This document shows, in pieces, positions 29,824 through 58,801 of a DNA stretch of 64,000 nt. A program made the translations under genes and the position numbers. The DNA is from Escherichia phage vB_EcoM_IME392. The notes beneath the pieces are model-generated. The model worked only from the letters and a program-made list of their open reading frames with translations, was not told where the DNA came from and made no database searches. Positions within the stretch are counted from its first letter, which is position 1, and each line of letters begins with the position of its first letter. The stretch lies in the sequence record MH719082.1; one strand, given 5' to 3'.

Positions 29824-29826
29824 GCC

Positions 29827-31653
29827 ATGGCTGATGCATTAGATGAGTTTATTGAAGCATGTGGCTCTAGACTCGAAGCTATGCATCAGTTAGCATTGAT
29901 GAGTGGCTACGAGGAGCGGGTTCCAACGATCCAAGAGTTCGTAATGGATCCATACTACCTGGGTAAGTCCTTGGTAGATGCTGATGGTGTCTGCTCGGTC
30001 TATCCTATTTGGATGGATGCTCTGGCTAAGATTTATCCTACTCCGTACACTTCACCAGCCGTAGAGATTTATCTCACTGGTGGTATCGGTCTTGGTAAGT
30101 CTACTGCTGCTAAGATTATCACTCTCTATGACTTGTGCAAATTGCTATGTCTTAGAGATCCTCGTGCACATTTTAAACTTCTGCCATCCACAGTAATTCG
30201 CTGGATGCTGATGAACGCCACTAAAGGTCTGTCCTACGATGTACTCTATGCAGAGATCATCGAGTGGATAGAGAATAGCCCATTCTTCAAAGGTAAGATG
30301 ACTGGTGGTAAGAATCCTCGTACTCTGTTCATTAAGAACGTAGACTTAGGATTCGGTTCTCGTGGTCAAGATGCTCTGGGTCAGGCTACCGTAGGTGCCA
30401 TCTTCTCAGAGATAAACGACATGACCGTAGTTCACGGTCAAGCAGAAGATAACTTTGATACCATCTATACTCGTATGAACTCTCGTTTCGGGGGTAAAGG
30501 GGTAGAGATGATTGGCCACTTGATTCTGGACTCTTCGAATAAGGGAAACCGTTCCTTTATCGATGTTCGTCTAGAGGATAAGGCCAAGAAAGGAATTCAC
30601 GACTATCTGTTATTCAGATACGCTCACTGGGAAGCTAAATGGCACCTCGGCGGGTATTCTGGGGAAATGTTCTACGTCTATGCTGGTGACCAGTATCGAG
30701 ATCCGTTTATCTTCGATGAGAATACTCTCAAGATTAAAGACGGTCTGGAGCCATCTCGTATTATCTCTGTACCTGTTGAACATAGACAGGAATTCGAGAC
30801 TAACATTGTTAAGTCTCTTAGGGATCTTGCAGGTGTGTCCACATTCGGTACATGGTCGTTCATCTCGTCCTACGAGGTGCTTAACCGAGCTGCTGATCAC
30901 ATTAACCCTACTGAATCTAACGTGGTGGTTCTGGACTTCTTCGATAAGGAGCAGACTCTTCACCAGACTATAGATATTCCTAGACTTGCCTTCCTTAATA
31001 AGAAGGATAGGTTCATCCATATTGACTTGGGTCTTAAGAACGACTCAACTGGTATAGCCTGTTCCTATCTCGATGGTTATGTTGACCAAGAGACTTACGA
31101 TCCTCTAACCAGTACGCGCATGGTTACTCGTGAACCTAAGATCGTTACTGAGTGGGCGTTAGAAATTACCTGCCAGCCTGGTCAGGAAGTTCCTATCTAC
31201 AAGATTAAGAACTTCTTAATAGAAGCATCTCAGCAGGGTTACCCAATTAAAATGGTAACCACCGATGGATACCAATCCACTAACTTACGTCAGGATTTAA
31301 CTCTGGCTGGGTTCGAGACTGCTCTGCTATCTGTTGACCGGACTAAAGATCCATATAACTACTTAAGGAACTCGATTCTCGAAGGTCGCAGCACTATTCC
31401 AGCTGTACCTAAGTTGATCAAAGAACTTAAGGAGCTAGAGGAAGGCGAAGGTAAATTCGACCATCCACCAGATGGCTCTAAGGATATCGCGGATGCCGTA
31501 TGTGGATCCCAATGGTCTGTTAAGGAGAATATCCATAAGATCGGGTCTACTGCTACGGTTGAAGATCTTCAAGTTGCACTCCACGAACTTAATAAGTCTA
31601 GGGATGCGAAGGAGATGTTTCGGAACATTATTAAGCAACGAGTGGGTGGCTAA
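29827..31653 (+). CDS. Terminase large subunit (ATPase plus nuclease)
   Basis: 608 aa. Walker A YLTGGIGLGKST near the N-terminus; size and position match gp17-type large terminases. Confidence 0.8.
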   Translation: MADALDEFIEACGSRLEAMHQLALMSGYEERVPTIQEFVMDPYYLGKSLVDADGVCSVYPIWMDALAKIYPTPYTSPAVEIYLTGGIGLGKSTAAKIITLYDLCKLLCLRDPRAHFKLLPSTVIRWMLMNATKGLSYDVLYAEIIEWIENSPFFKGKMTGGKNPRTLFIKNVDLGFGSRGQDALGQATVGAIFSEINDMTVVHGQAEDNFDTIYTRMNSRFGGKGVEMIGHLILDSSNKGNRSFIDVRLEDKAKKGIHDYLLFRYAHWEAKWHLGGYSGEMFYVYAGDQYRDPFIFDENTLKIKDGLEPSRIISVPVEHRQEFETNIVKSLRDLAGVSTFGTWSFISSYEVLNRAADHINPTESNVVVLDFFDKEQTLHQTIDIPRLAFLNKKDRFIHIDLGLKNDSTGIACSYLDGYVDQETYDPLTSTRMVTREPKIVTEWALEITCQPGQEVPIYKIKNFLIEASQQGYPIKMVTTDGYQSTNLRQDLTLAGFETALLSVDRTKDPYNYLRNSILEGRSTIPAVPKLIKELKELEEGEGKFDHPPDGSKDIADAVCGSQWSVKENIHKIGSTATVEDLQVALHELNKSRDAKEMFRNIIKQRVGG

Positions 31654-33231
31654 ATGGCAGAAAACGAAGTGGTCTCTAAGCAAGACTTAGATGACAAACC
31701 TGGTTCTCGCCAGGAGGTCTTAGCAAAGTTGCTAGACGATACCATCACTATGAAGCATAGTGATGGATTGTTGGGCACGGTACAGGCTTACCTTACCGAT
31801 CGCCTTACCAATATGGTAACCACTCGTGAAAAGTATTTCAACGAGCTGGCGAGATTTCGCTATAACTATATCACAGCTGGTATCTATGATATCATCTGCA
31901 ATGACGTGCTCACCAATACGGATGATGGTGGATTCGTCATAGAGATTGAAGGTGATGAAGAACTGACTCAGGAGGCGAACGAGCTAATTAAGGCTCTGGC
32001 CATCCCGGACTTCCTCACCTCCATTTTGCCGGAGTTACTGCACTATGGATCATACCCCTTAAGACCGTCACTGGAAGATGGCGAGGGATTGATTGGGTTG
32101 GTGGATGATTTTGATCCGCGTGATGTTATCGCAGTAACTGATTCATCCGGCCTTCCTATTTTCTTCTTCGTGAATTACACGACTAAAGATGCTGGGTACA
32201 TAGACTATGAGTCTCGTCAGAAGATGGAGTATCTAGGTCCTCAAGAGGTATCTTACCTCTCTCTGGATCAGAACTTCATTAAGCTGCCGATTCCCGATAA
32301 AGTCACTGCCCAGATGAAGCGTAAAATTACGGAAGAGTTGGGTGAAGACGAACCTATGGCTAAGCTCATGGGTAAGTCGATTAAAATTCGTTCGTCCTTG
32401 TCATTCTTATGGGGATCTCTGGATAAGCTCAAGAATATCTTGATGCTGGATAAGGTTAACGTCTATAAGACGCTGGCTAACCTCCTGAGTCCGTCTGTAA
32501 TCGGTGTTCCTCTCCCGAATAATAACGACATTAAGCAGATGAAGTCTATAGTCAACGACTATGACCAAATCATTAACAGTACTAACCTGTTTGCTGCTGA
32601 TATGAGTAACCTCCAGTTTAACCTGCAGGATATTGTATCAGTTAAAGTCGTTCCTATCTCTGGAGATCGGTCTGTACCTCAGATCCTGGATACTGGTAAG
32701 TCGGATAACACTATCGATCCAGAGAAGATCAGATCCGAGTTAGAGGTTCTGTTACAGTCCTATGGTATTCCTCTGGAATTATTCCTCGGAAGCCTTTCCT
32801 CTAAGGATAACCTAAGGACGAATATTCGTTATGCTAAGAAGATCAAGCGCATCGGTAAGAGCCTGTGTAAATGGCTGCAATATCTGCTGCTGTTACACTT
32901 CGGCTTTAAATACGAGAATCTGGATCTCGAGTTATCTGAAATTAAGGTAACACTGAAGTCCTCTATTAACGTAGATGCTCTTGAGAATATGGAGACTCAA
33001 GATCTTCTTATCACAAGTATTAATGGTATGACTGGGATGCTGGATTCTCTGAAGAACGAGATCGAGAACTCCAATTATACTATTGATAACGATGCTCTGC
33101 TTAAGGTAGTCGCGGATACTCTCGCAGACATAGGCTCTCCGTTCCACGGAGTAATTAAGCTTAAGTCCGAGGTCCCTATAACCCAGCAGACTCCTCCTGC
33201 TCCCCCAGAAGATGGTGAAGAGAATGAATAA
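31654..33231 (+). CDS. Portal protein (putative)
   Basis: 525 aa, start overlapping the terminase stop (TAAATG), highly acidic C-terminus; assigned by the terminase-portal-scaffold-capsid gene order. Confidence 0.55.
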   Translation: MAENEVVSKQDLDDKPGSRQEVLAKLLDDTITMKHSDGLLGTVQAYLTDRLTNMVTTREKYFNELARFRYNYITAGIYDIICNDVLTNTDDGGFVIEIEGDEELTQEANELIKALAIPDFLTSILPELLHYGSYPLRPSLEDGEGLIGLVDDFDPRDVIAVTDSSGLPIFFFVNYTTKDAGYIDYESRQKMEYLGPQEVSYLSLDQNFIKLPIPDKVTAQMKRKITEELGEDEPMAKLMGKSIKIRSSLSFLWGSLDKLKNILMLDKVNVYKTLANLLSPSVIGVPLPNNNDIKQMKSIVNDYDQIINSTNLFAADMSNLQFNLQDIVSVKVVPISGDRSVPQILDTGKSDNTIDPEKIRSELEVLLQSYGIPLELFLGSLSSKDNLRTNIRYAKKIKRIGKSLCKWLQYLLLLHFGFKYENLDLELSEIKVTLKSSINVDALENMETQDLLITSINGMTGMLDSLKNEIENSNYTIDNDALLKVVADTLADIGSPFHGVIKLKSEVPITQQTPPAPPEDGEENE

Positions 33232-33478
33232 ATCTGAGCTGCTTATGCAAGCTGTTGATGAGTCTGCTGCTACTACGTACACGCTGACTCGCCTTGCAAA
33301 AGATAACAGCGATACCGTAAATGGTGTGCTGGATAACTTCCTCCGTGACGTGCAGATCCACGATGCTGGCGCTACTGCATCTACCGATGACAATGGCGAT
33401 CTCACAGTAACTACTCGCCTCGGCGATGGTCTGACTTATATCATGGAAAAGTACGGCTTCAGCTACACTAAGTCGTAA
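33224..33478 (+). CDS. Hypothetical small head-module protein
   Basis: ATG at 33224 overlapping the portal stop; 84 aa. Confidence 0.4.
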   Translation: MNKSELLMQAVDESAATTYTLTRLAKDNSDTVNGVLDNFLRDVQIHDAGATASTDDNGDLTVTTRLGDGLTYIMEKYGFSYTKS

Positions 33479-33490
33479 TAAGGAACCGCT

Positions 33491-34927
33491 ATGGAAGTCG
33501 TAGACTCAGTCAATGCTGTTGACTTAGTTGAGGTATCCGAGGCAGTCCAATTCGACGTAGTTGAAAACGCATCCGAAGTTGATGGAAAATACGTCCTAGC
33601 GAAAGCTGTAGGTCCTGCGTTCTTTCCTGGTCAAACCTCTGGTAATAAAGTTTATTACCCCGAGGCGCTCTGGGAAAAAGTGCTGGCCGATGGGGACGTT
33701 AATTCCCGGCTGCAAAACCGTACCATGTTTGGTACGATTGGTCACGACATTGAGGATATCAATGACGAGGTCATCCGTCGAGGCGAACTGTCTCATATCG
33801 TAACTAAACTTTTTGTAGATGATGCTGGTGTAGGTCGAGCTGAGTATCTGGTGGTCAATACCCCGACTGGTCAGATTCTCAACACGCTACTCCGAGCAGG
33901 CTCTAAGCTGCGGGTGTCTACAAAGGCTAAGGGAGCGTTGTCCCATCCAGATGAGAATGGGGTCAAAACTCTCAGAAGCTACTATCTTAAAAGGATAGAC
34001 TTCGTACTTACCCCAGGATTCGAGCAGGCACTGCCCGAAGTAGCAGAGTCTCTGAACAAAATCCGTAACCAACTACCAGATCCCGTCGAGGAGAGTAAAA
34101 TGGAACAGAACGAATTCATTGAGCACCTTAAGACTGAGAACGCTCAGCTGAAGGCTCAGGTTGATGAATCCAAGCAGGCCAATACGGTCCTGAAAACTCA
34201 GCTGGATGAAGCGAAGACCCAACTGGCTACCGCTACCGCCCAGCTGGCTGAAGTTAACGAGTCCCTGGCTAAATACCAGACTCTGGGTACCTTCGAGCAG
34301 GTAGACGAAGCACTGACTAAAGGTGCGGAAACTATCACCACTCTGAAAGAGTCTCTGAACGAGGCTATCGAAGAGTCTGCTCACGACGTCCACGATCTGG
34401 AAGTCGTAGAAGAAGCTCTGGAGAAATACAAAGAGCTGGGTACTCCTGAAGAGATCTCCGAAGCTATCGCCACCCTGAATGGCTTGATCGAAGAGAAAGA
34501 GACCCAGGTCTGCGAATCTCTGGCCAAGAAATTCAAACGCAGCCCGAGCATGATTAAAACCATGCAGACTGCGCTGGGTGGCCTGGATAAAGTCGAAGAA
34601 GCTCTGGTAGCTGAAGCTGCCGAACTGGGCATCAAAATCGACGAATCCGACGATGGCGAAGATAAAGGCGACGGTAAAGACGATAAGGGTGATGACAAAT
34701 CCGACAAGAAAGATGGTGGGGATGACAAAGGCGACGATGCCGATGAATCCAAGAAAACTCCGTCTAAAGTCGAAGAGTCCCTGAATCGTGTAAATCGCCT
34801 GGGATCTCTGATGTCTACCAAACAGATCCGCACCAATCTGATTAATACCCAGAAAGTTGACGAGTCTGCTGGTAAAACTGCCGACGCGCCTCAATCTCGT
34901 GCCGGTAAACTGATGTCTCGTCGATAA
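33491..34927 (+). CDS. Prohead scaffold protein with N-terminal protease-like domain (putative protease-scaffold fusion)
   Basis: 478 aa. N-terminal globular part of about 190 aa, then a long heptad-rich coiled-coil (LKAQVDESKQANTVLKTQLDEAKTQLATATAQLAEV) and an acidic/lysine-rich tail (DGEDKGDGKDDKGDDKSDKKDGGDDKGDD); directly upstream of the major capsid gene. Confidence 0.5.
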   Translation: MEVVDSVNAVDLVEVSEAVQFDVVENASEVDGKYVLAKAVGPAFFPGQTSGNKVYYPEALWEKVLADGDVNSRLQNRTMFGTIGHDIEDINDEVIRRGELSHIVTKLFVDDAGVGRAEYLVVNTPTGQILNTLLRAGSKLRVSTKAKGALSHPDENGVKTLRSYYLKRIDFVLTPGFEQALPEVAESLNKIRNQLPDPVEESKMEQNEFIEHLKTENAQLKAQVDESKQANTVLKTQLDEAKTQLATATAQLAEVNESLAKYQTLGTFEQVDEALTKGAETITTLKESLNEAIEESAHDVHDLEVVEEALEKYKELGTPEEISEAIATLNGLIEEKETQVCESLAKKFKRSPSMIKTMQTALGGLDKVEEALVAEAAELGIKIDESDDGEDKGDGKDDKGDDKSDKKDGGDDKGDDADESKKTPSKVEESLNRVNRLGSLMSTKQIRTNLINTQKVDESAGKTADAPQSRAGKLMSRR

Positions 34928-34982
34928 CAGACTCAGTATCCGTAAGTGTAATTTGACTTTCCATGATTAAGGACTAATTTTC

Positions 34983-36410
34983 ATGACTAAGCAGAATATC
35001 GTGCTGTCTAACGTCGACGAGGCCTCCGCAGATGTAATGGCTAACGCCTACTTCGACAAATACAGCGAGCAAATGGATGCATACGCATCTAACTCCATCC
35101 TGGCGCGTGTTAACGAAAGCCTGTCTCCGTTCGAAATGATCGCAGTCGGCCAGACTCTGGACCAGTACCAGGGTTACCAGAAGTACGTCAACGAATCCAT
35201 GAGTGGCCTGGCATCTATGGGTGCTATTCCGGCAATCGCTCTGGACGTTATTACCGCATCTGTCGGTAACTCAATCCTGCCTCTGATCTGCTCTATCCAG
35301 CCGATCCCTGAAGAGCATGGTATTGTTTACTACCGTCAGATCAAAGCATCCCAGACCTCCGGCGGTTACAACGCAGGCGACGTGATCCGTGATCCGCTGT
35401 CTCGTGATAATCCTGGCGAAGGTACCCTGGGTGCCCAGCGTCGTCAGCAGGTAATCGGCACCGGTAACGGCACCGAAACTAACTTCGCTGCTACTCTGGA
35501 ACTGTATCCTGTTCGTCCGAACATGGTCTTCGTCAACATCCCTGGTGTTGGTAATGGTCAGGACGACGGTAACGGTAAGATCCTGGGCTTCGGCTTCGAT
35601 GGTACCATCAACTACAAAACTGGCGCGATCACTATCGCAGCTAAAGCAGCTGTTCCTAACACTGCTCAGGTTGCTGTTCGCTTCGACGTTGATGTTGATC
35701 TGCTGGATAACCTGGATAAAATCCAGGCTGGTCTGATCTCCAAAGATATCCGTGCGGAAATCTGGACCCTGGCTGCTGATATCGGCACCTTCGCTAACTT
35801 CGCCTTCCAGAATCGCTTCGGCCGTTCTGCAGAAGACGAAGTCGCATCCGACCTGTCCAACGAAATCACTAACGTCCTGAACGTTCGTGCTATCAAACAG
35901 ATCGCTGCGATGGCTATCGGAGAAACTATCTGGGATCAGACTCCTCCGGCTGGTGTTTCCTACGCTGAGCACAAACTGACTCTGGTTGATACCTTTGCTC
36001 GTGCTGAATCCGTGTTGCACAACAACGCTGGTGTAGGCTCTGTGAACCGTATCATCTGCGGTCGCTCTGCTGCTGCGGTATTCCGTGGTATGCCTGAGTT
36101 CACCCCAGCAGGTCAGTCTGTCGGTACTTCCGTATCTCTGTACGGCTTCTACGACGGCGTGCCGGTAATTCGTGCAACTGGTGTTATCGAAGATAACGCT
36201 GCGTATCTGATCTGCAACCCGGACGGTTACTTCAACTGCCCGCTGGCATACTCTCCGTTCATGCCGCTGATCGTTACCGATACCATCCAGAACCCGAACA
36301 ACCCGTTCCGTGGTACTAAAGCTGCTGGCGTTTGGGCGGGTATGACCCAGCTGAACCCGAACCTGGTAACCAAACTGACCTTCAAACTGGCTAACTTCTC
36401 TGGTAGCTAA
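34983..36410 (+). CDS. Major capsid protein
   Basis: 475 aa, AAGGA RBS. Strongly biased E. coli-type high-expression codon usage (ctg, cgt, ggt, aac, ccg), follows the scaffold gene, and is followed by a strong terminator. Confidence 0.7.
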   Translation: MTKQNIVLSNVDEASADVMANAYFDKYSEQMDAYASNSILARVNESLSPFEMIAVGQTLDQYQGYQKYVNESMSGLASMGAIPAIALDVITASVGNSILPLICSIQPIPEEHGIVYYRQIKASQTSGGYNAGDVIRDPLSRDNPGEGTLGAQRRQQVIGTGNGTETNFAATLELYPVRPNMVFVNIPGVGNGQDDGNGKILGFGFDGTINYKTGAITIAAKAAVPNTAQVAVRFDVDVDLLDNLDKIQAGLISKDIRAEIWTLAADIGTFANFAFQNRFGRSAEDEVASDLSNEITNVLNVRAIKQIAAMAIGETIWDQTPPAGVSYAEHKLTLVDTFARAESVLHNNAGVGSVNRIICGRSAAAVFRGMPEFTPAGQSVGTSVSLYGFYDGVPVIRATGVIEDNAAYLICNPDGYFNCPLAYSPFMPLIVTDTIQNPNNPFRGTKAAGVWAGMTQLNPNLVTKLTFKLANFSGS

Positions 36411-36436
36411 GATTTGATGCGTTAAGTTGGCATTAG

Positions 36437-36474
36437 CTACGGCCTCTTATTGAGGCCGTAGTTTTTCTTGTTTT
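36437..36474 (+). terminator. Rho-independent terminator after the major capsid gene
   Basis: CTACGGCCTC-ttatt-GAGGCCGTAG (10-bp perfect stem) followed by TTTTTCTTGTTTT. Confidence 0.7.
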
Positions 36475-36482
36475 AATTTACT

Positions 36483-36512
36483 TTGACATATCTCGATTAG
36501 TCAAACTAAATT
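36483..36512 (+). promoter_or_regulatory. Sigma70-like promoter candidate upstream of gene 36560
   Basis: TTGACA, 18-nt spacer, TAAATT, about 45 nt upstream of ATG 36560. Confidence 0.3.
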
Positions 36513-36559
36513 TAGTCAGGACGACACACTAGCACTAACCACCAACCAAAGAGGTAGAT

Positions 36560-37276
36560 ATGTATAAGGTAACTAATAAGTCCGAGTACACTGTTCAAGC
36601 TAACCTATCCGCAGACGGTCCGGTAAGCATCGCTCCTAAAGAGAGTCTGACCATTCGTAACCCGTCTCGCGATTTCGTTAAAGAGATCGGTCGCGTATCT
36701 AACCTGCTTTCCTATACGGAAGTAAGTGGTGATGCGTCTGGTGATCAGACCGATAAAGACGAAGTGGTCGTAGCTGAGCCAGAACATCCGAACTCGCTGG
36801 ACAAAGAGCCAGGTACTGTTATTCAGGGTACTGCTCTGACCAAAGAAGAAATTAACACTGCTGCTGAGCGCTCTGATCATAAGATCAATGACAAAGTGCC
36901 CGACACTGCGGTAGTTGGCGCTAACCAGGATGCTGCTGCACCTAAAACTGGTGGCGAGTCTAACGTCGCTCCTAAAGAAGTGACTGACGCAGAATTAAAT
37001 AACGCTGGCGCTGGCGCTGCTGCCGGTGGTGAAGATCAGGGTACTGGTAATGCGGAAGATGCTTCTGCAGATAAATCCGACTCTGGCATCCGTCAGTTTA
37101 CCGGTGAAGAACCTACCAAATCTGAAGATGACGGCGAAGGTGAGCAGTACACTCGCGAAGAGCTGGAATCTACTCACTGGGCTACCGTTAAGAGCATCGC
37201 GGAATCTAACGGTATTGACTACACCAACAAAGGTGAAGCGATCACCGCTATTCTGGATGCTAAAGTAACCAAGTAA
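36560..37276 (+). CDS. Acidic head-associated protein (possible decoration or outer capsid protein)
   Basis: 238 aa, RBS AAAGAGGTAG. High-expression codon usage like the capsid gene; Ala/Gly/Asp/Glu-rich central region. Confidence 0.4.
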   Translation: MYKVTNKSEYTVQANLSADGPVSIAPKESLTIRNPSRDFVKEIGRVSNLLSYTEVSGDASGDQTDKDEVVVAEPEHPNSLDKEPGTVIQGTALTKEEINTAAERSDHKINDKVPDTAVVGANQDAAAPKTGGESNVAPKEVTDAELNNAGAGAAAGGEDQGTGNAEDASADKSDSGIRQFTGEEPTKSEDDGEGEQYTREELESTHWATVKSIAESNGIDYTNKGEAITAILDAKVTK

Positions 37277-37309
37277 TAGCTAAAATTCAACGAGCCTACG
37301 GAGCATAGT

Positions 37310-37846
37310 ATGGATATTCGCAGTTTAGTTCTCCAGGGAACAGATACTCTCAGGAAGAATCAATATCCTACTGGTAAAGTAGGCTCGTTCGATTTTAACT
37401 ATGTTATGAGAAATAAACAGCTCATCGTTAAATCTCAGGCACGCCCTTCCAGTGGTGAATCGTATTCGGCATATCAGTCCCAGATTGTATTCTCTGGAGT
37501 AGGTTATTCTGATGTTCCGTCTCCTGATTTCCCTCTGACGTACAATTCTCCTAACGGGAAGATTTATCTTCAGAAGCCTACCACTCGGAATACTGTCCAG
37601 ATCAGATGTTCTTGTAAGGACGATTATTTCATGTGGCAGTACCCTAATAAGTCTAAGGGTGCTCTCCTGGGTAGATTTAAGCCGTATGTACGTAAAACAA
37701 CGGATCGTCCTCCTAGAAACCCAGGCAACGTACCAGGAATGTGTAAACATGCTCTGGCTCTCGTGAAGAATCTGTTTTCTATGGGAGTTCTCCAGCCTGA
37801 TTCTCAGGTACAAGAGTACTTATCAAGACCAACTAGGAGTATATAA
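37310..37846 (+). CDS. Hypothetical virion protein
   Basis: 178-aa ORF in the head/neck module. Confidence 0.45.
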   Translation: MDIRSLVLQGTDTLRKNQYPTGKVGSFDFNYVMRNKQLIVKSQARPSSGESYSAYQSQIVFSGVGYSDVPSPDFPLTYNSPNGKIYLQKPTTRNTVQIRCSCKDDYFMWQYPNKSKGALLGRFKPYVRKTTDRPPRNPGNVPGMCKHALALVKNLFSMGVLQPDSQVQEYLSRPTRSI

Positions 37847-38133
37847 TGGTAACTGCAGCAGAAGTTCTTTCGTCTGTTGACGAAGCCACTTATACGATCA
37901 AGCGCATCAAACAGATTCGTGACGGTCGTCTGGTGATTCGTCAGAAGCGTCAGTACGCTGGTCCGGCACCTAAGCCAGGATTTAAGCGTAATCCTCAGAC
38001 TGGCAACATCGAGAAGATGACAGCTACTGAGCACCGTAAGCGTTCTAAAGCTGTCCGTAAGGTACAGCGTAAGGCCACGGTTAAGCTGAAACGCGCTAAA
38101 TCAATTCGTCGCAGAGAGGCTATGGGGTTATGA
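37846..38133 (+). CDS. Small highly basic protein
   Basis: 95 aa; C-terminal half is Lys/Arg-rich (HRKRSKAVRKVQRKATVKLKRAKSIRRRE). Confidence 0.45.
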   Translation: MVTAAEVLSSVDEATYTIKRIKQIRDGRLVIRQKRQYAGPAPKPGFKRNPQTGNIEKMTATEHRKRSKAVRKVQRKATVKLKRAKSIRRREAMGL

Positions 38134-38759
38134 GTCTGAGCTATGATGAACTCGTTGAATCGTTCCTGTTAGAATCAGGGCAATTTATTCTGGATAGTCT
38201 GGATGATACTGCTCTTACGCAGGACCGAGTGGAGCTTATCATAGCTAAAGAGCTAGCCACCTACTCCAGATATAAACCTAATCTGGTTACTGGAGCTTTG
38301 AATCTCTGGAATAACCGAAGATTTACTGGTAAGGATGAGCACGGTAATCCTGAGCCCATCCCTATCGTAATTCACCGACTATTCGTTAATGGTGGTTTTA
38401 CTCGCTTGATCACCAACAATAGATTCGGTACCATCTCCCAGAACTACTGGCGCTTCGATAACGGAGTGTTCAATATGTATATGGAAGATGGGCAGTACTT
38501 GTGTGAGTATGCAGTAGCGCACACCTATAATAAAGAAACTAAGTCAATCGACTCCTTAGACTTAACAGCAACTACGTTCATGAGTATGGTTCATGGTAAG
38601 ATGATGCAAGTCTTAGGCAGGTCCCGACGAGCCTTCCAGATCAGTGATAGTCCTATACTGATGGATGGTGATGCACTAATAGCGGACGGCCAACAGATGT
38701 ATGACCAGGCTATGGAAGATCTTAAAACCCAGAGCGATTACATGTTGGCTTCTATGTAA
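38130..38759 (+). CDS. Hypothetical head-tail connector-region protein
   Basis: 209-aa ORF, start overlapping the upstream stop (ATGA). Confidence 0.45.
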   Translation: MSLSYDELVESFLLESGQFILDSLDDTALTQDRVELIIAKELATYSRYKPNLVTGALNLWNNRRFTGKDEHGNPEPIPIVIHRLFVNGGFTRLITNNRFGTISQNYWRFDNGVFNMYMEDGQYLCEYAVAHTYNKETKSIDSLDLTATTFMSMVHGKMMQVLGRSRRAFQISDSPILMDGDALIADGQQMYDQAMEDLKTQSDYMLASM

Positions 38760-38768
38760 GAGGCTTTT

Positions 38769-39332
38769 ATGGAGAAGAGAACTCACCAGGATAGACTGGA
38801 GGAGGCTTCCCGCAAGTTCGCATTAGTTCAAATACCTTTAGCAGTGAAAACTGCTGGTATATATTGTCGGTTGTATCGTAAAGTCAACGACCTACGTGAT
38901 GAGGTCTACGGCAATTACGGAGGAGTCGACGAACTAATCCCCATTACAGCGAACTCGGTGTATTCTGGCATGGATAATGCAGTTGCATCGGCATCAGGTT
39001 CGTCGCTGGACTTATCCAGCTTGGGTACTTTAGAGGACGGTGCGCTAGCTCAGAACGAAATCGACGTCTCTTCGGGCTACGAAGTAGAAGACGAGTTCCG
39101 AGTGCTGCTTACCGCATCTCAATGGCGAATAGTAGCGGGCTATGAGGGAGGCTTCCTCGAGGATAGCGGGTATGCTTTTGCTCTTACCTCCAAGGACTTA
39201 AAGACAGGTGATGTCGTAGAGTTCGACAGGAAAGACGGAGCTCTCGCGAGATTCCGAGTAATTAAGCCGGTATCTCTTGGTCGAAAAGTGGATATCGTTA
39301 CCAGATTCCAATTATCAAACATAGGGGATTGA
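38769..39332 (+). CDS. Hypothetical structural protein
   Basis: 187-aa ORF in the structural operon. Confidence 0.45.
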   Translation: MEKRTHQDRLEEASRKFALVQIPLAVKTAGIYCRLYRKVNDLRDEVYGNYGGVDELIPITANSVYSGMDNAVASASGSSLDLSSLGTLEDGALAQNEIDVSSGYEVEDEFRVLLTASQWRIVAGYEGGFLEDSGYAFALTSKDLKTGDVVEFDRKDGALARFRVIKPVSLGRKVDIVTRFQLSNIGD

Positions 39333-39333
39333 T

Positions 39334-39999
39334 ATGGCTAGTTTGGCGATCACTCCTGCTGATGTAATTGCTGCTCTTAATAAGTGGTTAGCTACTAACT
39401 ATAAGACTGTTAAGAGTATCGTGTTTGATCCTATGGCTGGTTATGAAACATCCATAGAGAATGTCAGAGCCACGAGTATTCAATTGAATAACTATCGTGA
39501 GGCTAAATCCACGATGCCGATTCTGTCGTGGAACCGGACGCCCTTCCGCAGAGGAGATATGGGTAAAACCATATCCCAGAAGATGAAAGGTGCCGATGGT
39601 AAATGGTACAACGTAACTGTAGCCATGATGAAGATGGACTACAGATTCGTATTCTTCGCCACGAATATGAAAGATGTTGAGCAGTTTGAGGTTGACTGGT
39701 TAACACAGCGTGGGTTAAACGGGATTACGAATGCTACAGTGAACATGGGGCAGTCGCTAGGTGAATTTACCTTCGCCTTAAACTGGGGCATGTCTCTGGA
39801 AGATATAACCTTTAATCTGGAGACTAATTACTACAAAGCCTTAACTGGCTCTGCGGAGATTAGTGGACCGGTTATATCAGCCACGGAACTGGGTGAGGAT
39901 GACCTCAATAACCTTATCGAGGTGGTTGAGTTCCAACTCCAGTCCTGTAATGGCGGAGTACTTCCGGATAAGTTTACAATTACAGATCTCGGAGATTAA
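39334..39999 (+). CDS. Hypothetical structural protein (possible tail terminator/completion)
   Basis: 221-aa ORF immediately upstream of the sheath region. Confidence 0.4.
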   Translation: MASLAITPADVIAALNKWLATNYKTVKSIVFDPMAGYETSIENVRATSIQLNNYREAKSTMPILSWNRTPFRRGDMGKTISQKMKGADGKWYNVTVAMMKMDYRFVFFATNMKDVEQFEVDWLTQRGLNGITNATVNMGQSLGEFTFALNWGMSLEDITFNLETNYYKALTGSAEISGPVISATELGEDDLNNLIEVVEFQLQSCNGGVLPDKFTITDLGD

Positions 40000-40000
40000 G

Positions 40001-40192
40001 ATGTCTGAACAAAATAAAACCGACGCCCCAGTTAGCGAAAAGGTTCGCCTGTTCTCTATTGTGGATTATGACGTCGAGATCACCATTAAAGGTGGTCAAA
40101 CTATCCTCGTTCCTCCGAAGGGCATCCTGAAAGATGTTCCTAAAGAGTGGCTGGAAGATGTCAAACTTCCTGCTGGCGTTAAGATGAAATAA
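40001..40192 (+). CDS. Hypothetical small protein
   Basis: ORF track 39863..40192; the ATG at 40001 (MSEQNKTDAPV...) follows the stop of the upstream gene by 2 nt. Confidence 0.35.
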   Translation: MSEQNKTDAPVSEKVRLFSIVDYDVEITIKGGQTILVPPKGILKDVPKEWLEDVKLPAGVKMK

Positions 40193-40202
40193 GGAGATTT
40201 AA

Positions 40203-42002
40203 ATGTCTGCACCACGCGTAAGCTATGCGGAGCGCGATCTGAGTGCGTACGTTCCTGCCACTGAGACTATTTATGCGGCTATCGTAGTTGATGCTGTTAA
40301 AGGTCCGGTAGAGAAACCGATCGTGCCTGGCAATGCTCCCAACTTCCTGAAAATCTTTACGCCAAATGAGCAAATCGACATCGGTATGTCTACTGCGCAC
40401 TTCTCTGCGCTAACCGTGTTGGAGAAATACTCCAGCGTGGTGGTAGTTCGTGCTGCTTCTGCTGATGCTCGCTATTCAGGCGCTCTGGTAAATAAAGACG
40501 GTACCGTCGTTACTGCCAGTGATATTAAAGATCCGTCTGCAGTGGATATGGACGACGAGTCCTTCCTGATCGCAGCAGCTAACCAGGGTCTTTGGGGTGA
40601 TGAACTCCGCTTCCAGGTACTCGGCTATAAAGCTACTGAGACTGTCGCCGTAACTGGTGGTATTCTTAAGTCTACCCAGAAATGGGGTGCTGGTTATCCG
40701 GTTAAACTGGCTGGCTCTAACCTGCCTGCTGAAGTAAATGATTACACCACTTACTTCGCAGTACCTGCTGCTGGTGGTATTAAGCTGGCAACCAGCCGAG
40801 CTAATGCTACCGCATCTACTCCTGTTACATTGACCGTGTCCGATGCTACTGGAGTTATCGTATCTCCAGCTGTGGAGTACACCAAGATCCCTAATACCTT
40901 CAATCTGCGGGTATTTAAAGCGGACGATCTGGTTAATCCAGTGCTGGACGTAATCGGTTCTAAGATCAATGGTCTTAAGGATCAGGACAATAAGTCTCTG
41001 TACATCGAAGATGTTACTGCCGACAATATCTACGCTCAGGTGTTTAATAACCCTCTGAACACTGATCCGGTTACTGACATCGTTATCCCAGCAGCATTGG
41101 GTGGTGGTTCTAACGGATCTCCTGTTACCGATGGAGACTGTATTCGTGCTCTGAATAAGCTCAACAACCCTCGTGAATTCGCTATTAAAGTGATCATGAA
41201 CGGTGGTCGTACTTCTCAGGCATACGGTTCAGCGATCATCGCACTGGCAGAGTCCCGTGCTGACTGCGTCGGTATTACCTCGGTTCCTCTGACTGCACAG
41301 GGTGGTGTATCTCCTGCCCAGTCTATGGTTAACTATCGTAAGCACGACACTAACTGGGATACCAGTTATGCTGCCATGTATGCGCCTCACGTTAAGATCT
41401 ACGATCGTTACAACGACCGTAATCTGTGGGTATCTCCGGACGGCGTTGCGACGAAGGCTATCTTCGATACCGCATCTAACTTCGAGATCTGGTACCCAGT
41501 GGGTGGTAACAAGCGTGGCGTGGTTAACGTGCTGGATACGTACGTACACCTGCTAGACTCTGACCAGGATCTTCTGTATGATGCGGGTATTAACCCTATC
41601 GTATTCGAAGAAGGAGAAGGTATCAAGATCTGGGGTCAGAAGACTCTTCAGTATGCCAGCTCTATGCTGGATCGTCTGAATGTCCGACTCCTGCTGGTTA
41701 CCATCGGTCCGGCTATCCGTAAACTGCTGGCGAACTTCCTGTTCGAATTCAACGATGCGGATACTCGTGCGCTGGCTAAAGGTATGGTCGATACCTATAT
41801 GGATTCGATCATGGCTCGTCGCGGTGTTACTAAGTATGTCACTATCTGTGATGATACCAACAACACTGCAAGCGATGTGGATAACCATATCCTGCGAGTA
41901 AGCCTGCTGGTTTGCCCGAATAACTCGACCGAATACATCCCTCTGACTATTGGTATTACCAATAACAGTGTGGACTTCGATCTGGCCGCGGAAGCACTGT
42001 AA
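40203..42002 (+). CDS. Tail sheath protein
   Basis: 599 aa, AAGGAG RBS, high-expression codon usage, immediately upstream of the tube gene; size typical of contractile-tail sheath proteins. Confidence 0.6.
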   Translation: MSAPRVSYAERDLSAYVPATETIYAAIVVDAVKGPVEKPIVPGNAPNFLKIFTPNEQIDIGMSTAHFSALTVLEKYSSVVVVRAASADARYSGALVNKDGTVVTASDIKDPSAVDMDDESFLIAAANQGLWGDELRFQVLGYKATETVAVTGGILKSTQKWGAGYPVKLAGSNLPAEVNDYTTYFAVPAAGGIKLATSRANATASTPVTLTVSDATGVIVSPAVEYTKIPNTFNLRVFKADDLVNPVLDVIGSKINGLKDQDNKSLYIEDVTADNIYAQVFNNPLNTDPVTDIVIPAALGGGSNGSPVTDGDCIRALNKLNNPREFAIKVIMNGGRTSQAYGSAIIALAESRADCVGITSVPLTAQGGVSPAQSMVNYRKHDTNWDTSYAAMYAPHVKIYDRYNDRNLWVSPDGVATKAIFDTASNFEIWYPVGGNKRGVVNVLDTYVHLLDSDQDLLYDAGINPIVFEEGEGIKIWGQKTLQYASSMLDRLNVRLLLVTIGPAIRKLLANFLFEFNDADTRALAKGMVDTYMDSIMARRGVTKYVTICDDTNNTASDVDNHILRVSLLVCPNNSTEYIPLTIGITNNSVDFDLAAEAL

Positions 42003-42012
42003 GGAGATCAGG

Positions 42013-42537
42013 ATGCCGCCTATTACTTTGGATCAAGTCCGCAATCTGGGAGACTTCGCCACGATCGTCGACTGGGAATTACAGTTCATCACTGTACCTT
42101 CCGGCCTGAATAATCTGTCGGATGCAGTCTTCCTGCGTTGCGAATCTTCGGATATTCCGAAAAAGACTGGTACTTCCACATCTATCCAGATTCGTGGTCT
42201 GGTGCCAGTTAAACAGCCTGGGATTTACGCTCCTCCTCAGACTCTTACACTAACCTGTAACGAAACTGTGGATAACGCAATCGCTCAGCAGATTGCTAAC
42301 TGGCGTGAAATGTGCTACCAGACTGGTACTGGTGTTGCTGGTCGTACTCAGGATGTTAAGGCGAAACTGCGTCTTAAACGTCTGAATCGTCAGAAAGTCG
42401 GTATCTGGTATTATGATCTCGAAGGTGTATTCCTGGAAGATTATGATGCTGGTGGCCAGCTGGGCTCTACTTCGGCTGACGTACTGAAACCAGTCCTGAC
42501 GTTGTCCTACGACGACTTCAAGGAAGGAGCTCTTTAA
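42013..42537 (+). CDS. Tail tube protein
   Basis: ORF track 41950..42537; the ATG at 42013 is preceded by AAGGAG, giving about 175 aa (tube-protein size) directly after the sheath gene. Confidence 0.55.
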   Translation: MPPITLDQVRNLGDFATIVDWELQFITVPSGLNNLSDAVFLRCESSDIPKKTGTSTSIQIRGLVPVKQPGIYAPPQTLTLTCNETVDNAIAQQIANWREMCYQTGTGVAGRTQDVKAKLRLKRLNRQKVGIWYYDLEGVFLEDYDAGGQLGSTSADVLKPVLTLSYDDFKEGAL

Positions 42538-42551
42538 TAGAGAGGTAGACC

Positions 42552-43028
42552 GTGTTTTTGAATAATGTTCAACAAGTACGGTCTATCGAATGGGGACAAA
42601 TGCACTTGTGGGATGTAAGATTCCCTGATGCTCCGTCCCCATTCTCCGACTGGTTTCCTGCTACGGATTATCAGTTGAACTCAGTAACTGGGTTAGCTAT
42701 GTCTCAGCAGTTTTACATGCGAGATTTTAAGTTCCCCCAGAGTAAAGGATCTCCGGATTTAACATTCCAGGTATTGGACGATGAGAAGATGACACTCCAT
42801 GAGTGGTATCAGCATTGGTTCGATGAAATATACCAGGAATCTTCCGGAGTACTTACTTTAGCTGAGTGTGTTAGACCAGTTATAGTAGCTACCTTAAATC
42901 GTCAGAGACAGAGAGTGTTGTTAGAGACATTCTATGTATTCCCAGACGGTGCGGTAAACAGAAGTGGCTCGTCCAATTCGGATCAAGTCAACTTCACAAT
43001 GAACTTCATCATAGCAGGTAAGAACTAA
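42552..43028 (+). CDS. Hypothetical tail protein (possible tail assembly chaperone)
   Basis: 158 aa, GTG start with GAGGTAG RBS; sits between the tube and tape-measure genes. Confidence 0.4.
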   Translation: MFLNNVQQVRSIEWGQMHLWDVRFPDAPSPFSDWFPATDYQLNSVTGLAMSQQFYMRDFKFPQSKGSPDLTFQVLDDEKMTLHEWYQHWFDEIYQESSGVLTLAECVRPVIVATLNRQRQRVLLETFYVFPDGAVNRSGSSNSDQVNFTMNFIIAGKN

Positions 43029-43034
43029 GGATCA

Positions 43035-43865
43035 ATGATGGAAACTGTATCTCGTGAAGAATTAGCGTCCCAGAAGGCTTCCGAGGAAGTCGTTGCTGCG
43101 ACTCCTGTAGTCGATCCGGCTACGTCAGACTCTACTGGTATTCTGATTACCGCGGAACAGCTTCCGTCTCGGTTCTTAGCTTACCCTGCTGGTACCACTA
43201 TTTCGTATAAGCCCTACAGCTTCGGCGAAGTAGAGAGATGGTCCCACGGTAAGATGACTCTTGAGCAGAAGATCGAACTAACCTTCGCCAACATCGAAAC
43301 TCGCGGTATAACTAAGGGACAGATCGTATTCGAAGATCTCCTCCTTATTATGGTACTCCGTAAGTTAACCACGTTCTCTAAGAACGAGTGGCGTCTTTCC
43401 TACACATGCCCAGGTTGCCAGGAATATATCTCCTCTAGCCGTAGCTTAAGCGAGATTATCTTCCAGGACTTAACCGAAATAGAAGAATTGCCTATTATCC
43501 TCGATCTTCCTAATGGGGATACTCTGGAATTCACCCCGTTTACGGTTGATGATATGATGGTGTGCCGTCGTATCTCTCCCGAGCGCTCTGCGGAAGTAGA
43601 GTTGCCTAAGATGGTCCGTAATAAGACCTACGAAGAAGCCAAGAAGATTATCCTCGAGAATAAAGACTCTGATATAATTCAGGCTCTTCAGATGATCGAC
43701 GAGATTCTTGACTTTGGTCGCCAGTATATTGAATGTGCTTGCCCTAAGTGTGGACATAAGGCCGAAGTAACGGTCAAGGGGGTAAGCCAACTGGCGGAAC
43801 CGTTTCGTAGAGATGAAGTCTCTATTAAACATCTCATCTCTTTTGGCAAGAAGAAACATGGTTGA
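43035..43865 (+). CDS. Hypothetical tail-assembly protein with two CxxC zinc-ribbon-like pairs
   Basis: 276 aa; CPGCQEY and CPKCGHK. Confidence 0.4.
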   Translation: MMETVSREELASQKASEEVVAATPVVDPATSDSTGILITAEQLPSRFLAYPAGTTISYKPYSFGEVERWSHGKMTLEQKIELTFANIETRGITKGQIVFEDLLLIMVLRKLTTFSKNEWRLSYTCPGCQEYISSSRSLSEIIFQDLTEIEELPIILDLPNGDTLEFTPFTVDDMMVCRRISPERSAEVELPKMVRNKTYEEAKKIILENKDSDIIQALQMIDEILDFGRQYIECACPKCGHKAEVTVKGVSQLAEPFRRDEVSIKHLISFGKKKHG

Positions 43866-43943
43866 TCTTTACCACGTGAAAAGGATGGACTTTTCCGAGG
43901 CATTCCACCATTATCAAGAAATAGTTGCTGCGGAGAGTAAATA

Positions 43944-46802
43944 ATGGTTAGCATAGTTAGAGGCATATCTGGGATTGCTCGTACAGAAGCTACCGATCCG
44001 ATTAAGGATGCCTCTGATTACGAGCATGCCAGGTCTAAATTGGAAGAAGATCTTATCGGGATCCGTTCTACGGTTAAGATACTCTCCAGCAACGATGTAG
44101 ATGTAGGTCTTAGCTCCGATGAAGTTAAGACCCTGAATACACTGATGGGTAAGTTTTACGGCAGGGCTAAGTTCTCTACCCAGGAAGCTGAGCAGCTGAT
44201 CTCCTTAAGAGATAAAGTCGGCCAGGTTGCGGATATGTACGCTACTGCCGAGGATCAAAAGGCCATCGCTGCGGAATCTTTACTCGACACCTATCAGTCA
44301 ATATTAAATGACTCTAGACTTACTCGTGGCGTCCGTATGACTGCTATGAGAGAACTGAGTGGGTTACTTCGGGTACTTAACGTATCCAATTCCTCACTTA
44401 GTACTATCAATATGCGGAAGAATAACCGCATCATTGAGCAAGCTAGAGCTGAGTTAGCCAATCAGAACGTAAAGATTAAATATTCTGATACGGTAAAGGT
44501 TGCTAACTTAACGAACAGGAGTAAGGATGAGAGGGATACTCTTGACAGATTTAACATACGTCAAACTGGCCGTAATTTAAGGGATTCGTTCCTTAATACC
44601 CCATCGCAGTTTTCCGTAGGTTCTGTCCGCAAGGAAGCACTCTCATCAGGTCTAGGTGCCTTAGGTTTAGGGGACCTGGATAGTGTATTCGGTATATCTG
44701 ATAAATTGGATGGTGCCATATCATCCATGTTCCGTAAAAGGAAAGATGAACCGGATACTACTGACGAAGAATTAAAGGCCATATCTCGAGAGATTCTTAA
44801 ATCAGAAAATAAACCCGATGGAGAATCTTCCACTGAGGCCTCTGCTAAAGTCGACGGTAAAGAGGCTAAGGTCGAGATTACTACTCCAGATGCTACTGTA
44901 AATCCAAAACCCAGTTTCGGACCTACTCCAGAAGAGGAGCAGAATCAGAAGCTGGACGAGATTAACAACAGCATTCGAGAGTTAATTAATGAGACTAGGT
45001 CTGGCCAGGACGAACTGTCCCGTAAGCAGACTCAGTTAATTAATGGTCAGTCTACTTTGGTGGATATCGATGAGCAACTGGTATCGGTAACCAGAGCTAA
45101 TGGAAGAGCTAACCATGAAGAAATTGATCCTTTCGCTAACGAACAGAAGCAGGGTGCTGCTGATTCTATCTTTGATGATCTTATCGGTGGTGGCGATGAG
45201 CGTGGCCGCAGAGGTAGAAGAGGTAGGGGAAGAAGAGGCAGGACTCGTCTCGGTCGTGGACTCAGCAGGTTCGGTAGACTCGGCAGGATGGCAGGCAGAG
45301 CAGTCGACGCAGCTGCCACCGGAGGACTTGCGAGAGGTGCTGCTCGTGGAGGTGGTGCGCTTCTGAGAGCTGGCCTTAAGGGAGCTAAGTTCATCCCAGG
45401 AATCGGGTTAGCCGTAACTGCTGGTATGGGAGTTTATGATGCTGTCTCTGGATGGGATGGAGATAAGGCTAAGGAACTATTCGGTAGTGACGATAACTGG
45501 GCTAAGGCTGGCTCATCTGCAGCCTCACTATCCTCTGGGTTAACTTTAGGGTTAGCATCTCCAGAGGATGTAGTGAATGTCGCTAAGTCTGCTGTAGATA
45601 CTGTACAGAAGACATACGAAGGTGCGGTTAATATTGCAAATAACCTAACGGCGTCATTCTCAGGGATGTATAAGAATGCGTCCGACTGGCTTTCCAAGTC
45701 CGTCTCCGATACATCTAAGTGGTTCTCCGATAGTTACGACTCAGTAACCAAGTCCATAACCGGAGAAATCAGTGAATTATCTAACTTGGTTACAGAATTT
45801 ATAAATGATCCTATGAAGTCTATAGGTGAAGGTATTGGTGGCCTATTTGATTGGCTATCAGACCTACCGGTAGTCGGTGACTTCTTTAAAGGACTTAAGA
45901 AAGGAGCTGTTGCGGTATCCAATGGGATTATCGGAGCAGGTGCCTCCATAGTTAATGGCGCAAGAGCTGTTGGTGGAATAATATCCAATGGTTATGACAG
46001 TGCTGTTGATGCCGGTGGTAGTATCCTACAGTCCGCTATGCAGAATGCCTCTCGATACCTCCCAAGCTCTAAGGAGCAGACGGAGCGTAAGAACAATCTG
46101 GCAGAGTATGCTAAGCAGCAGGGAATCGACGATAAAGAATTGGCTCTATTCATGGGCCAGGTTCAGCATGAATCTGGTAACTTCCGTTATAATAAAGAAC
46201 TAGCCTCTGGTAAAGCGTACGAGGGTCGTAAAGACCTGGGTAACGTAAATCCTGGGGACGGGGTTCGTTATAAGGGTCGTGGCTGGATACAGCTTACTGG
46301 TAGGGCTAATTACCAGAAATATGGTAAGATGCTGGGTATAGATCTCGAAAATAATCCGGAGATGGCTGAAGATCCTGAAATCGCCAATAAGTTGGCGGTT
46401 GCATATTGGAAAGATCGTGTGCGACCACAGCTGGAGAAGAAAGGATCTACTGTTGAAGTGGCAACTAAGGCAGTCAATGGTGGGTATAATGGGTTAGCAG
46501 ACCGTGCTGCATATACTGCAGAATGGATGAAGAATGGTTCTGATGCTGAGGCATCTAAGTCAGGAGCTACCCAGGTTGCTCAGAACGTACCTCTCGAGGT
46601 CCCTAAAGCTCCTACCCCTACAGACGATGTTAATAAACAACGTCAAGATCAGAATAATCAATTGGCTGCTATGGCTGCTGGTTCCACCAGAAATCAGGAT
46701 CCTGCTGCTATAACTCCTAACGTACCTTCAGTGGTTACGGATAAGAGTGACACTATTGATGACTATGGTCTGGCGTTCTTCAACAAGATGGTGTTCTCAT
46801 AA
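43944..46802 (+). CDS. Tail tape measure protein with C-terminal GH19-like peptidoglycan hydrolase domain
   Basis: 952 aa. N-terminal coiled-coil, central Arg/Gly repeat (GRRGRRGRGRRGRTRLGRG), Gly-rich hydrophobic segment, and C-terminal FMGQVQHESGNF...YKGRGWIQLTGRANY (GH19/lysozyme-like motif). Sits between the tube/chaperone and baseplate genes. Confidence 0.65.
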   Translation: MVSIVRGISGIARTEATDPIKDASDYEHARSKLEEDLIGIRSTVKILSSNDVDVGLSSDEVKTLNTLMGKFYGRAKFSTQEAEQLISLRDKVGQVADMYATAEDQKAIAAESLLDTYQSILNDSRLTRGVRMTAMRELSGLLRVLNVSNSSLSTINMRKNNRIIEQARAELANQNVKIKYSDTVKVANLTNRSKDERDTLDRFNIRQTGRNLRDSFLNTPSQFSVGSVRKEALSSGLGALGLGDLDSVFGISDKLDGAISSMFRKRKDEPDTTDEELKAISREILKSENKPDGESSTEASAKVDGKEAKVEITTPDATVNPKPSFGPTPEEEQNQKLDEINNSIRELINETRSGQDELSRKQTQLINGQSTLVDIDEQLVSVTRANGRANHEEIDPFANEQKQGAADSIFDDLIGGGDERGRRGRRGRGRRGRTRLGRGLSRFGRLGRMAGRAVDAAATGGLARGAARGGGALLRAGLKGAKFIPGIGLAVTAGMGVYDAVSGWDGDKAKELFGSDDNWAKAGSSAASLSSGLTLGLASPEDVVNVAKSAVDTVQKTYEGAVNIANNLTASFSGMYKNASDWLSKSVSDTSKWFSDSYDSVTKSITGEISELSNLVTEFINDPMKSIGEGIGGLFDWLSDLPVVGDFFKGLKKGAVAVSNGIIGAGASIVNGARAVGGIISNGYDSAVDAGGSILQSAMQNASRYLPSSKEQTERKNNLAEYAKQQGIDDKELALFMGQVQHESGNFRYNKELASGKAYEGRKDLGNVNPGDGVRYKGRGWIQLTGRANYQKYGKMLGIDLENNPEMAEDPEIANKLAVAYWKDRVRPQLEKKGSTVEVATKAVNGGYNGLADRAAYTAEWMKNGSDAEASKSGATQVAQNVPLEVPKAPTPTDDVNKQRQDQNNQLAAMAAGSTRNQDPAAITPNVPSVVTDKSDTIDDYGLAFFNKMVFS

Positions 46803-47437: not shown

Positions 47438-47444
47438 GTGACTT

Positions 47445-53598: not shown

Positions 53599-53610
53599 TA
53601 GGATATCGAA

Positions 53611-54528: not shown

Positions 54529-54537
54529 GGAATACCC

Positions 54538-54879: not shown

Positions 54880-54880
54880 T

Positions 54881-56655: not shown

Positions 56656-56666
56656 AGAGGTATAAA

Positions 56667-58726: not shown

Positions 58727-58801
58727 TATTTATTAAGGGGTAGTTATGTCAATTAATTACATGACTCCAGATAGTATCGTGATTGTAAGTGAGGTGTCAA
58801 T

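Follow-up and report, generated by a model that had tools for sequence, protein, structure and literature searches.

Why do a few virion genes of Escherichia phage vB_EcoM_IME392 use the codon set of highly expressed Escherichia coli genes, while the genes beside them do not? The question arises at positions 34983-42002 of a 64,000-nucleotide stretch of this genome (record MH719082.1), hereafter the window. A preliminary description of the DNA had singled out 4 genes there, encoding the major capsid protein, an acidic protein, a small protein, and the tail sheath, and had proposed translational selection as the cause of their codon usage, with mosaic acquisition as an alternative. We find a codon bias that is directed toward the usage of highly expressed E. 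coli genes, is independent of amino-acid content and of the proportion of codons ending in G or C (GC3), and begins and ends with individual genes. Very probably, selection for efficient translation in E. coli has set the codon usage of each gene according to the amount of protein required; the bias itself is observed, and its selective cause is what we infer. The features of the region are as follows.

34983-36410, plus strand: major capsid protein, T4 gp23-like (Pfam PF07068 Gp23, residues 87-439)
36560-37276, plus strand: gene for an acidic protein (isoelectric point, pI, 4.4), with a high codon adaptation index (CAI)
37310-39999, plus strand: 6 genes between capsid and sheath, used as the contrast set (CAI 0.35, 0.52, 0.32, 0.28, 0.33, and 0.33)
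40001-40192, plus strand: small gene of 63 codons, immediately upstream of the sheath gene and annotated in the related phage EP_H11
40203-42002, plus strand: tail sheath (phrog_23, E = 2e-62, residues 9-595, full-length)

The window carries 64 called genes, 30 on the minus strand (up to 29153) and 34 on the plus strand (from 29350). Minus-strand genes serve replication and nucleotide metabolism, and plus-strand genes form the structural module; the latter 34 are our “late genes,” a label given from position and function. The closest relatives of the phage are E. coli phages. Over positions 34983-42002, nucleotide identity with Escherichia phage EP_H11, the sole matching record in the phage collection, is 96.6%. 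EP_H11 has a genome of 111 kb, comes from a pig farm, and was isolated on E. coli H11; nearly every one of its genes is annotated as a hypothetical protein. Both phages have been assigned to an “RP13-like” group with predicted hypermodified thymidine, in 2 papers of 2025 in which codon usage does not appear as a topic (PMC12686479; bioRxiv 10.1101/2025.03.26.645540). More distant relatives are Acinetobacter phage Ab1-TPeters and Ralstonia phage RP13, whose capsid proteins are 63% and 55% identical, respectively.

CAI weights were taken from 30 E. coli K-12 genes (ribosomal proteins, tufA, fusA, and rpoA; 5185 codons), and 39 ordinary E. coli genes served as the comparison set. The index performs as expected, with scores of 0.55-0.84 for reference genes, about 0.7 for aceE, aceF, and lpd, and 0.3-0.5 for most ordinary genes. 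Across all 64 window genes, the mean CAI is 0.418 (standard deviation 0.105). The capsid gene, with a CAI of 0.776 and an effective number of codons (Nc) of 32.4, is the most codon-biased gene in the window; the acidic gene scores 0.666, the sheath gene 0.585, and the small gene 0.580. These are the exact top 4 of the 34 late genes (exact p = 2.2e-5). Comparison of each gene with highly expressed E. coli genes, the check proposed at the outset, thus gives a clear difference, and the claim that these 4 genes are host-optimised relative to other late genes holds both by rank and by the z-scores given below. Proteins needed in few copies are encoded by genes with low values, namely 0.40 for the portal, 0.41 for the terminase, and 0.31-0.38 for the baseplate genes; a 952-residue protein with a lysozyme-like domain scores 0.33. 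Adaptation of portal, terminase, baseplate, and fibre genes is average or below, and the CAI ranking tracks the copy numbers expected in a myovirus particle. In the part of EP_H11 that lies beyond the range of the window, no gene of at least 150 codons has a CAI above 0.56.

The direction of the shift is specific. All 6 codons listed in the preliminary description are enriched in the 4 genes relative to other late genes: CTG (0.78 versus 0.28), CGT (0.64 versus 0.37), GGT (0.68 versus 0.50), AAC (0.71 versus 0.44), CCG (0.39 versus 0.18), and TCT (0.51 versus 0.34). Pooled heterogeneity between the 2 groups is large (chi2 = 361, 41 degrees of freedom). Over 59 codons, the phage shift correlates with the one that separates highly expressed from ordinary genes of E. 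coli (r = 0.64, p = 4e-8). Several of the changes run against GC3 or are neutral to it: the fraction of AAA increases (0.40 to 0.63), as does that of GAA (0.53 to 0.63), GGT, CGT, and TCT go up, and GGG, TCG, and ACG fall. Codon fractions of the capsid gene correlate with those of the E. coli highly expressed set at r = 0.94, against 0.65 for other late genes; within the capsid gene, CTG reaches 0.97, CAG 0.95, and ATA 0. A principal component analysis of relative codon usage, which receives no information on the host, recovers the same axis: its first component explains 27% of the variance, correlates with CAI at r = 0.93 and with GC3 at 0.37, and places the capsid gene, gene 17046, and the tube, sheath, and acidic genes at its top. 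The correlations with host usage, with CAI, and of the capsid gene, together with the kinship to E. coli phages, support the proposal of translational selection in an Escherichia-like host.

Synonymous choice was separated from amino-acid content and base composition by 2 randomisations that follow the logic of Lucks, Nelson, Kudla, and Plotkin 2008 (PMC2266997). The first keeps the amino-acid sequence constant and redraws synonymous codons from those of the remaining phage genes (2000 resamplings per gene); the second additionally fixes the count of G- or C-ending codons for each amino acid. Under the first, z is 16.5 for the capsid gene, 8.7 for the sheath, 6.5 for the acidic gene, 3.7 for the tube, and 2.6 for the small gene; under the second, the values are 10.1, 6.4, 5.8, 2.9, and 3.1, respectively. 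The 4 genes had also been described as more GC-rich than their neighbors. This is clearly so for the capsid gene only (GC 0.53, GC3 0.58): the acidic gene, at a GC3 of 0.42, falls short of the mean, its GC excess coming from first codon positions, and the GC of the small gene equals the genome mean. As a group, the 4 genes do not differ from other late genes in GC3 (p = 0.21) and are higher at first codon positions (GC1, p = 0.004).

The shift belongs to genes and not to the region. CAI computed in 50-codon blocks follows each gene separately; at 37310-37846 and 38130-39999, where gene values are 0.28-0.35, the low genes stay low in every block. A shift spanning 34983-42002 as a whole therefore stands for the 4 named genes and fails for 5 of the 6 genes within 37310-39999. 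The same signal also appears beyond these limits, on both strands. In the protease and capsid region, optimised codons begin at 34100 and not at 34983; at the other end, the codon-adapted tube gene sits just outside the region. The features concerned are listed here.

33491-34927, plus strand: head maturation protease open reading frame (ORF) (phrog_207, E = 1e-15)
34100-34927, plus strand: candidate nested scaffold gene, with an in-frame internal ATG at codon 204 preceded by GAGGAGAGTAAA (GAGGAGA, a strong ribosome-binding motif)
42013-42537, plus strand: probable tail tube (phrog_4542, E = 2e-5; CAI 0.538)
17046-18056, minus strand: gene for a protein with a very acidic C-terminal tail (CAI 0.667, Nc 38.2, z = 8.3)
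10068-12053, minus strand: topoisomerase II large subunit (phrog_543, E = 6e-84; CAI 0.522, z = 6.3)

The tube protein is 54% identical to an Ab1-TPeters protein annotated as tail tube. Outside the structural module, no gene is more adapted than 17046-18056, whose CAI is second only to that of the capsid gene. Within the contrast set, 37846-38133 encodes a very basic protein of 95 residues (pI 11.7; CAI 0.52, z = 2.4) that is conserved in Ab1-TPeters and RP13.

The tRNAs of the phage offer a separate view of decoding. Two tRNA genes were called in the window.

26105-26180, minus strand: tRNA with anticodon CAT, called Met by ARAGORN and read here as the tRNA-Ile2 type
26650-26725, minus strand: tRNA-Arg with anticodon TCT, reading AGA (ARAGORN; Rfam tRNA, 71 bits)

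The first of these should read ATA, following a predicted lysidine modification, because it matches E. coli tRNA-Ile genes over its full length (87-88% identity) and has an anticodon stem-loop identical to that of E. coli ileX, tRNA-Ile(CAU), with C4 and C5 retained. Among the matches listed from 6058 E. coli records, all were annotated as tRNA-Ile. EP_H11 has a third tRNA, tRNA-Gly (anticodon TCC, reading GGA), which is absent from the window. In ordinary phage genes, ATA accounts for 19% of its codon family, AGA for 20%, and GGA for 24%; the corresponding figures for the E. coli comparison set are 5%, 2%, and 9%. In the 4 adapted genes, ATA is used for 0 of 91 Ile codons, AGA for 0 of 47 Arg codons, and GGA for 5 of 109 Gly codons (Fisher p from 2e-8 to 6e-5). 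The comparison with the phage's own tRNA complement, also proposed in advance, was thus informative: the tRNAs read codons that are never used in the 4 abundant genes. Since ATA and AGA are common in ordinary genes and missing from adapted ones, the phage tRNAs would serve the low-copy majority, and the bulk proteins would draw on abundant host tRNAs.

The AT-rich contrast to the 4 genes that was first noticed corresponds to the tail fibre and tail-spike module, where 54538-59425 has a GC3 of 0.29-0.32. This module enters the discussion of alternatives.

52831-62492, plus strand: tail fibre and tail-spike module, with no EP_H11 nucleotide match

Several alternatives to selection on translation deserve consideration. 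One holds that high CAI is a compositional artefact, produced by unusual amino-acid content or local GC and not by synonymous choice. The higher GC1 of the 4 genes, and the acidic gene's GC excess lying wholly at nonsynonymous positions, are what such an artefact would produce; yet amino acids are fixed in both randomisations, and GC3 in the second as well, and the 4 genes keep z-scores of 3.1 to 10.1 with no group difference in GC3. We find this explanation barely credible. A simple GC3 shift was likewise considered as the cause and is ruled out, since optimal A- and T-ending codons rise, nonoptimal G-ending codons fall, the excess survives with GC3 fixed, and the first principal component is only loosely tied to GC3. 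A second alternative is mosaic acquisition, in which recombination with a GC-richer phage or with the host brought in the capsid, acidic, small, and sheath genes, whose codons would then reflect the donor. Phage genomes are mosaic, and this one holds a truly swapped module at 52831-62492; moreover, the slot 3' of the capsid gene is variable, with an acidic protein that has no homologue in Ab1-TPeters or RP13 (E < 1e-3) and shows 24 gap positions against EP_H11. Against import stands the continuity of divergence from EP_H11 across 29350-47822, where identity per gene is 92-99% and synonymous divergence (dS) 0.03-0.29, with no step in identity at 34983, 36560, 40001, or 42002; the dS of the capsid gene (0.11) and of the sheath gene (0.17) resembles that of their neighbors. 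Gene order points the same way: 23 of the 25 genes of 29350-52822 have Ab1-TPeters homologues in the same order throughout, the capsid being the best conserved (63%); capsid, sheath, tube, and their neighbors are collinear with that phage, and RP13 shares the capsid-proximal part. High- and low-CAI genes interleave, so that at least 4 separate imports would be needed, each ending exactly at a gene boundary, and the excess includes A- and T-ending optimal codons and persists with GC3 fixed. With no jump in divergence and a module syntenic with 2 distant relatives, mosaic acquisition finds no support as the origin of the shift, and we consider it very improbable. The acidic gene alone may have had a separate origin, being the sole exception to synteny: its slot holds an immunoglobulin-domain structural protein in Ab1-TPeters, and a homing endonuclease with another ORF in RP13.

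The relatives also show how an inherited gene changes its codons. In both Ab1-TPeters and RP13, the capsid gene exceeds all its neighbors in codon bias and in GC content, and the sheath gene is raised as well. The preferred codons differ: in the Ab1-TPeters capsid gene, CAA stands at 0.83 and CTG at 0.03, with CTT/TTA and CCA/CCT preferred, and in that of RP13, AAG stands at 0.93 and TCA at 0.53. Such a pattern, in which a vertically inherited capsid gene has been re-optimised toward different codons in each lineage, is predicted by selection and not by import. A third alternative keeps selection and changes its target to a correlate of codon optimality: mRNA stability (avoidance of AU-rich RNase E sites), accuracy in structurally critical proteins, or a tRNA pool altered by infection. 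All of these predict optimal codons in important or abundant genes, sequence analysis does not separate them from translational efficiency, and a terminator hairpin 3' of the capsid gene hints at control at the transcript level. Nonetheless, the adapted set spans the replication module (17046 and topoisomerase) as well as the structural module, which makes a purely temporal tRNA-pool cause unlikely, and the avoided codons are exactly those read by rare host tRNAs (ATA, AGA, GGA, and CTA), which points to tRNA supply; we regard a correlate as an unlikely target overall. Some observations weigh against selection for efficient translation. Lower dS would be expected in high-CAI genes because purifying selection on their synonymous sites should be stronger; over 40 genes compared with EP_H11, CAI and dS are uncorrelated (Spearman rho = -0.04), in a single close pair that gives little power, with dS at 0.11 for the capsid gene, 0.05 for gene 17046, and typically 0.1-0.3. 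The small gene has only 62 codons, and its signal is marginal. Expression levels are those that capsid, sheath, and tube homology and known myovirus stoichiometry would imply. The acidic and small proteins are probably abundant virion proteins, an assignment drawn from position and codon usage and to that extent circular. Finally, the codon preferences of the relatives suggest, in a qualitative comparison, that their capsid genes may track their own hosts.

If translational selection is the cause, its operation can be outlined as follows. Proteins required in hundreds of copies (capsid, probable scaffold, sheath, and tube) would be written almost wholly in codons read by abundant host tRNAs, and the acidic protein and the small sheath-adjacent protein would probably fall in the same high-copy class. 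Genes for low-copy proteins, such as portal, terminase, baseplate, and fibres, would drift with an AT-leaning mutational background. They make free use of ATA, AGA, and GGA, all of them rare codons in E. coli, and the first 2 are read by tRNAs that the phage itself encodes. A bolder possibility, in a lineage that has hardly been studied, is that the codon landscape can be read as an expression map, with a nested scaffold at 34100 conserved across hosts, abundant acidic and sheath-partner proteins, a very abundant early protein from 17046-18056, and strict two-tier decoding. We put this forward tentatively, with slightly less than even confidence. Were two-tier decoding true, the bulk proteins would avoid the codons of phage tRNAs, and the low-copy majority would depend on those tRNAs. 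In practical terms, adaptation to an E. coli-type translation system is confirmed from the sequence alone, and CAI places the genes of this sparsely annotated phage in order of the protein output that is likely for each; the ranking flags 3 uncharacterised proteins and a probable hidden scaffold gene as likely abundant products.

The hidden gene emerges from a codon-usage step inside the protease ORF. The best change point lies at codon 233, a statistic reached in 2 of 1000 permutations, and the step is located at about codons 204-233. CAI is 0.36 before the ATG at 34100 and 0.68 after it; the adapted part is the 3' 60% of the ORF, and the sequence downstream of the ATG is acidic and coiled-coil-like. 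Equivalent in-frame ATGs occur in EP_H11, in Ab1-TPeters (codon 218), and in RP13 (codon 203). In the last 2 phages, the ATG lies in the same linker with a purine-rich motif upstream, and the same codon step is present when scored against each phage's own capsid-plus-sheath codon preferences. It is probable that 34100-34927 is a nested scaffold gene, which would make a separate C-terminal polypeptide. Nested protease and scaffold genes are familiar from lambda C/Nu3 and herpesvirus UL26/UL26.5. As in those systems, an in-frame start after the protease domain is predicted here to yield a separate, more abundant, coiled-coil C-terminal protein; the likeness to lambda C/Nu3 is an analogy of gene architecture only.

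Comparable codon usage is familiar from T4, which, like this phage, is a large virulent myovirus of E. coli whose genome leans toward AT. T4 reportedly has 2 classes of codon usage tied to expression and to the use of T4 versus host tRNAs, an observation credited to Cowe and Sharp in 1991 and to Kunisawa in 1992. Its gp23 and gp32 are abundant and use host-preferred codons, and among its 8 tRNAs are a tRNA-Ile that reads ATA and a tRNA-Arg that reads AGA. In the phage studied here, ATA and AGA tRNAs similarly serve ordinary phage genes; it differs in having 2 tRNAs (3 in EP_H11) against 8, and the kinship with T4 is very distant, the Gp23 match being barely above the cut-off (26.5 bits over residues 87-439 of the capsid protein, with a gathering cut-off of 24.4). 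Phage tRNAs in general are said to offset differences in codon usage between phage and host, as Bailly-Bechet, Vergassola, and Rocha proposed in 2007. The tRNAs here conform, in that they read ATA and AGA (and GGA in EP_H11), codons that account for 19-24% of their families in the phage and 2-9% in E. coli; they depart from that pattern in that the most abundant genes never use ATA or AGA. Translational selection on phage head and tail genes has been established for 74 phages by tests of the same kinds (PMC2266997). Two randomisations of the same kinds give the same result here, for an RP13-like lineage that was not covered among the lambda, T-phages, and others of that study; in contrast to its findings, the effect lies in a few genes and not in a whole genome arm, and most structural genes are unadapted (PMC2266997). 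Host-codon bias in abundant phage genes is textbook knowledge and well documented; this phage is a further instance, and leaves what is known of phage codon usage unchanged.

Some properties of individual features complete the picture. In Vibrio, Rhizobium, and other phages, the tblastn matches of the capsid protein carry the annotation major capsid protein. Directly 3' of the capsid gene lies the hairpin mentioned above.

36435-36463, plus strand: strong hairpin resembling an intrinsic terminator, with a 12-pair stem (7 G-C pairs) followed by a T-run, TTTCTTGTTT; a consensus match only
29827-31653, plus strand: large terminase (weak match)

A simple scan listed no equivalent terminator 3' of the capsid gene in Ab1-TPeters or RP13. 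A sigma-70-like promoter match at 36483-36512, upstream of the acidic gene, is given no weight, since such matches occur at chance frequency. One EP_H11 gene carries the annotation RNA polymerase beta' subunit, so that scans for host-type promoters may not apply to the late genes of that phage.

For the acidic protein, an AlphaFold model built with 6 close homologues is confident only for residues 1-57 and 193-238; in it, a small beta domain (1-57) is followed by a disordered acidic linker (58-192) and then by a C-terminal domain of three helices. Both terminal domains are conserved, and linker length varies among relatives, the comparison with EP_H11 showing 24 gap positions. Searches of PHROGs, of Pfam (with the single sequence and with the 6 homologues), and of PDB sequences gave no match, and a Foldseek search of the model against viral structures matched only itself. 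The product of the small gene at 40001-40192 has no PHROG or Pfam family match; the gene is homologous to a small ORF in the same position of Ab1-TPeters (alignment z = 8.2). The protein encoded at 17046-18056 gave no PHROG, Pfam, or PDB profile match, and its structural model is unusable (predicted local distance difference test score, pLDDT, 41); that it is a single-strand DNA-binding protein is an unsupported guess.

The tRNA region (window 25140-27520) is rearranged relative to EP_H11, and the roughly 470 bases between the 2 tRNAs hold no convincing ORF or Rfam match. At the other end of the window, the nucleotide match to EP_H11 is lost from the middle of 51329-52822 onward. Judged by this loss and by the matches of the spike gene, the true mosaic segment of the genome is the tail-spike end, 52831-62492. 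Within it, 60090-62492 shares about 90% identity with the endosialidase tail-spike genes of E. coli phages unrelated to this one. An endosialidase-like spike suggests a K1-capsulated host, a useful fact for therapy or engineering with this phage.

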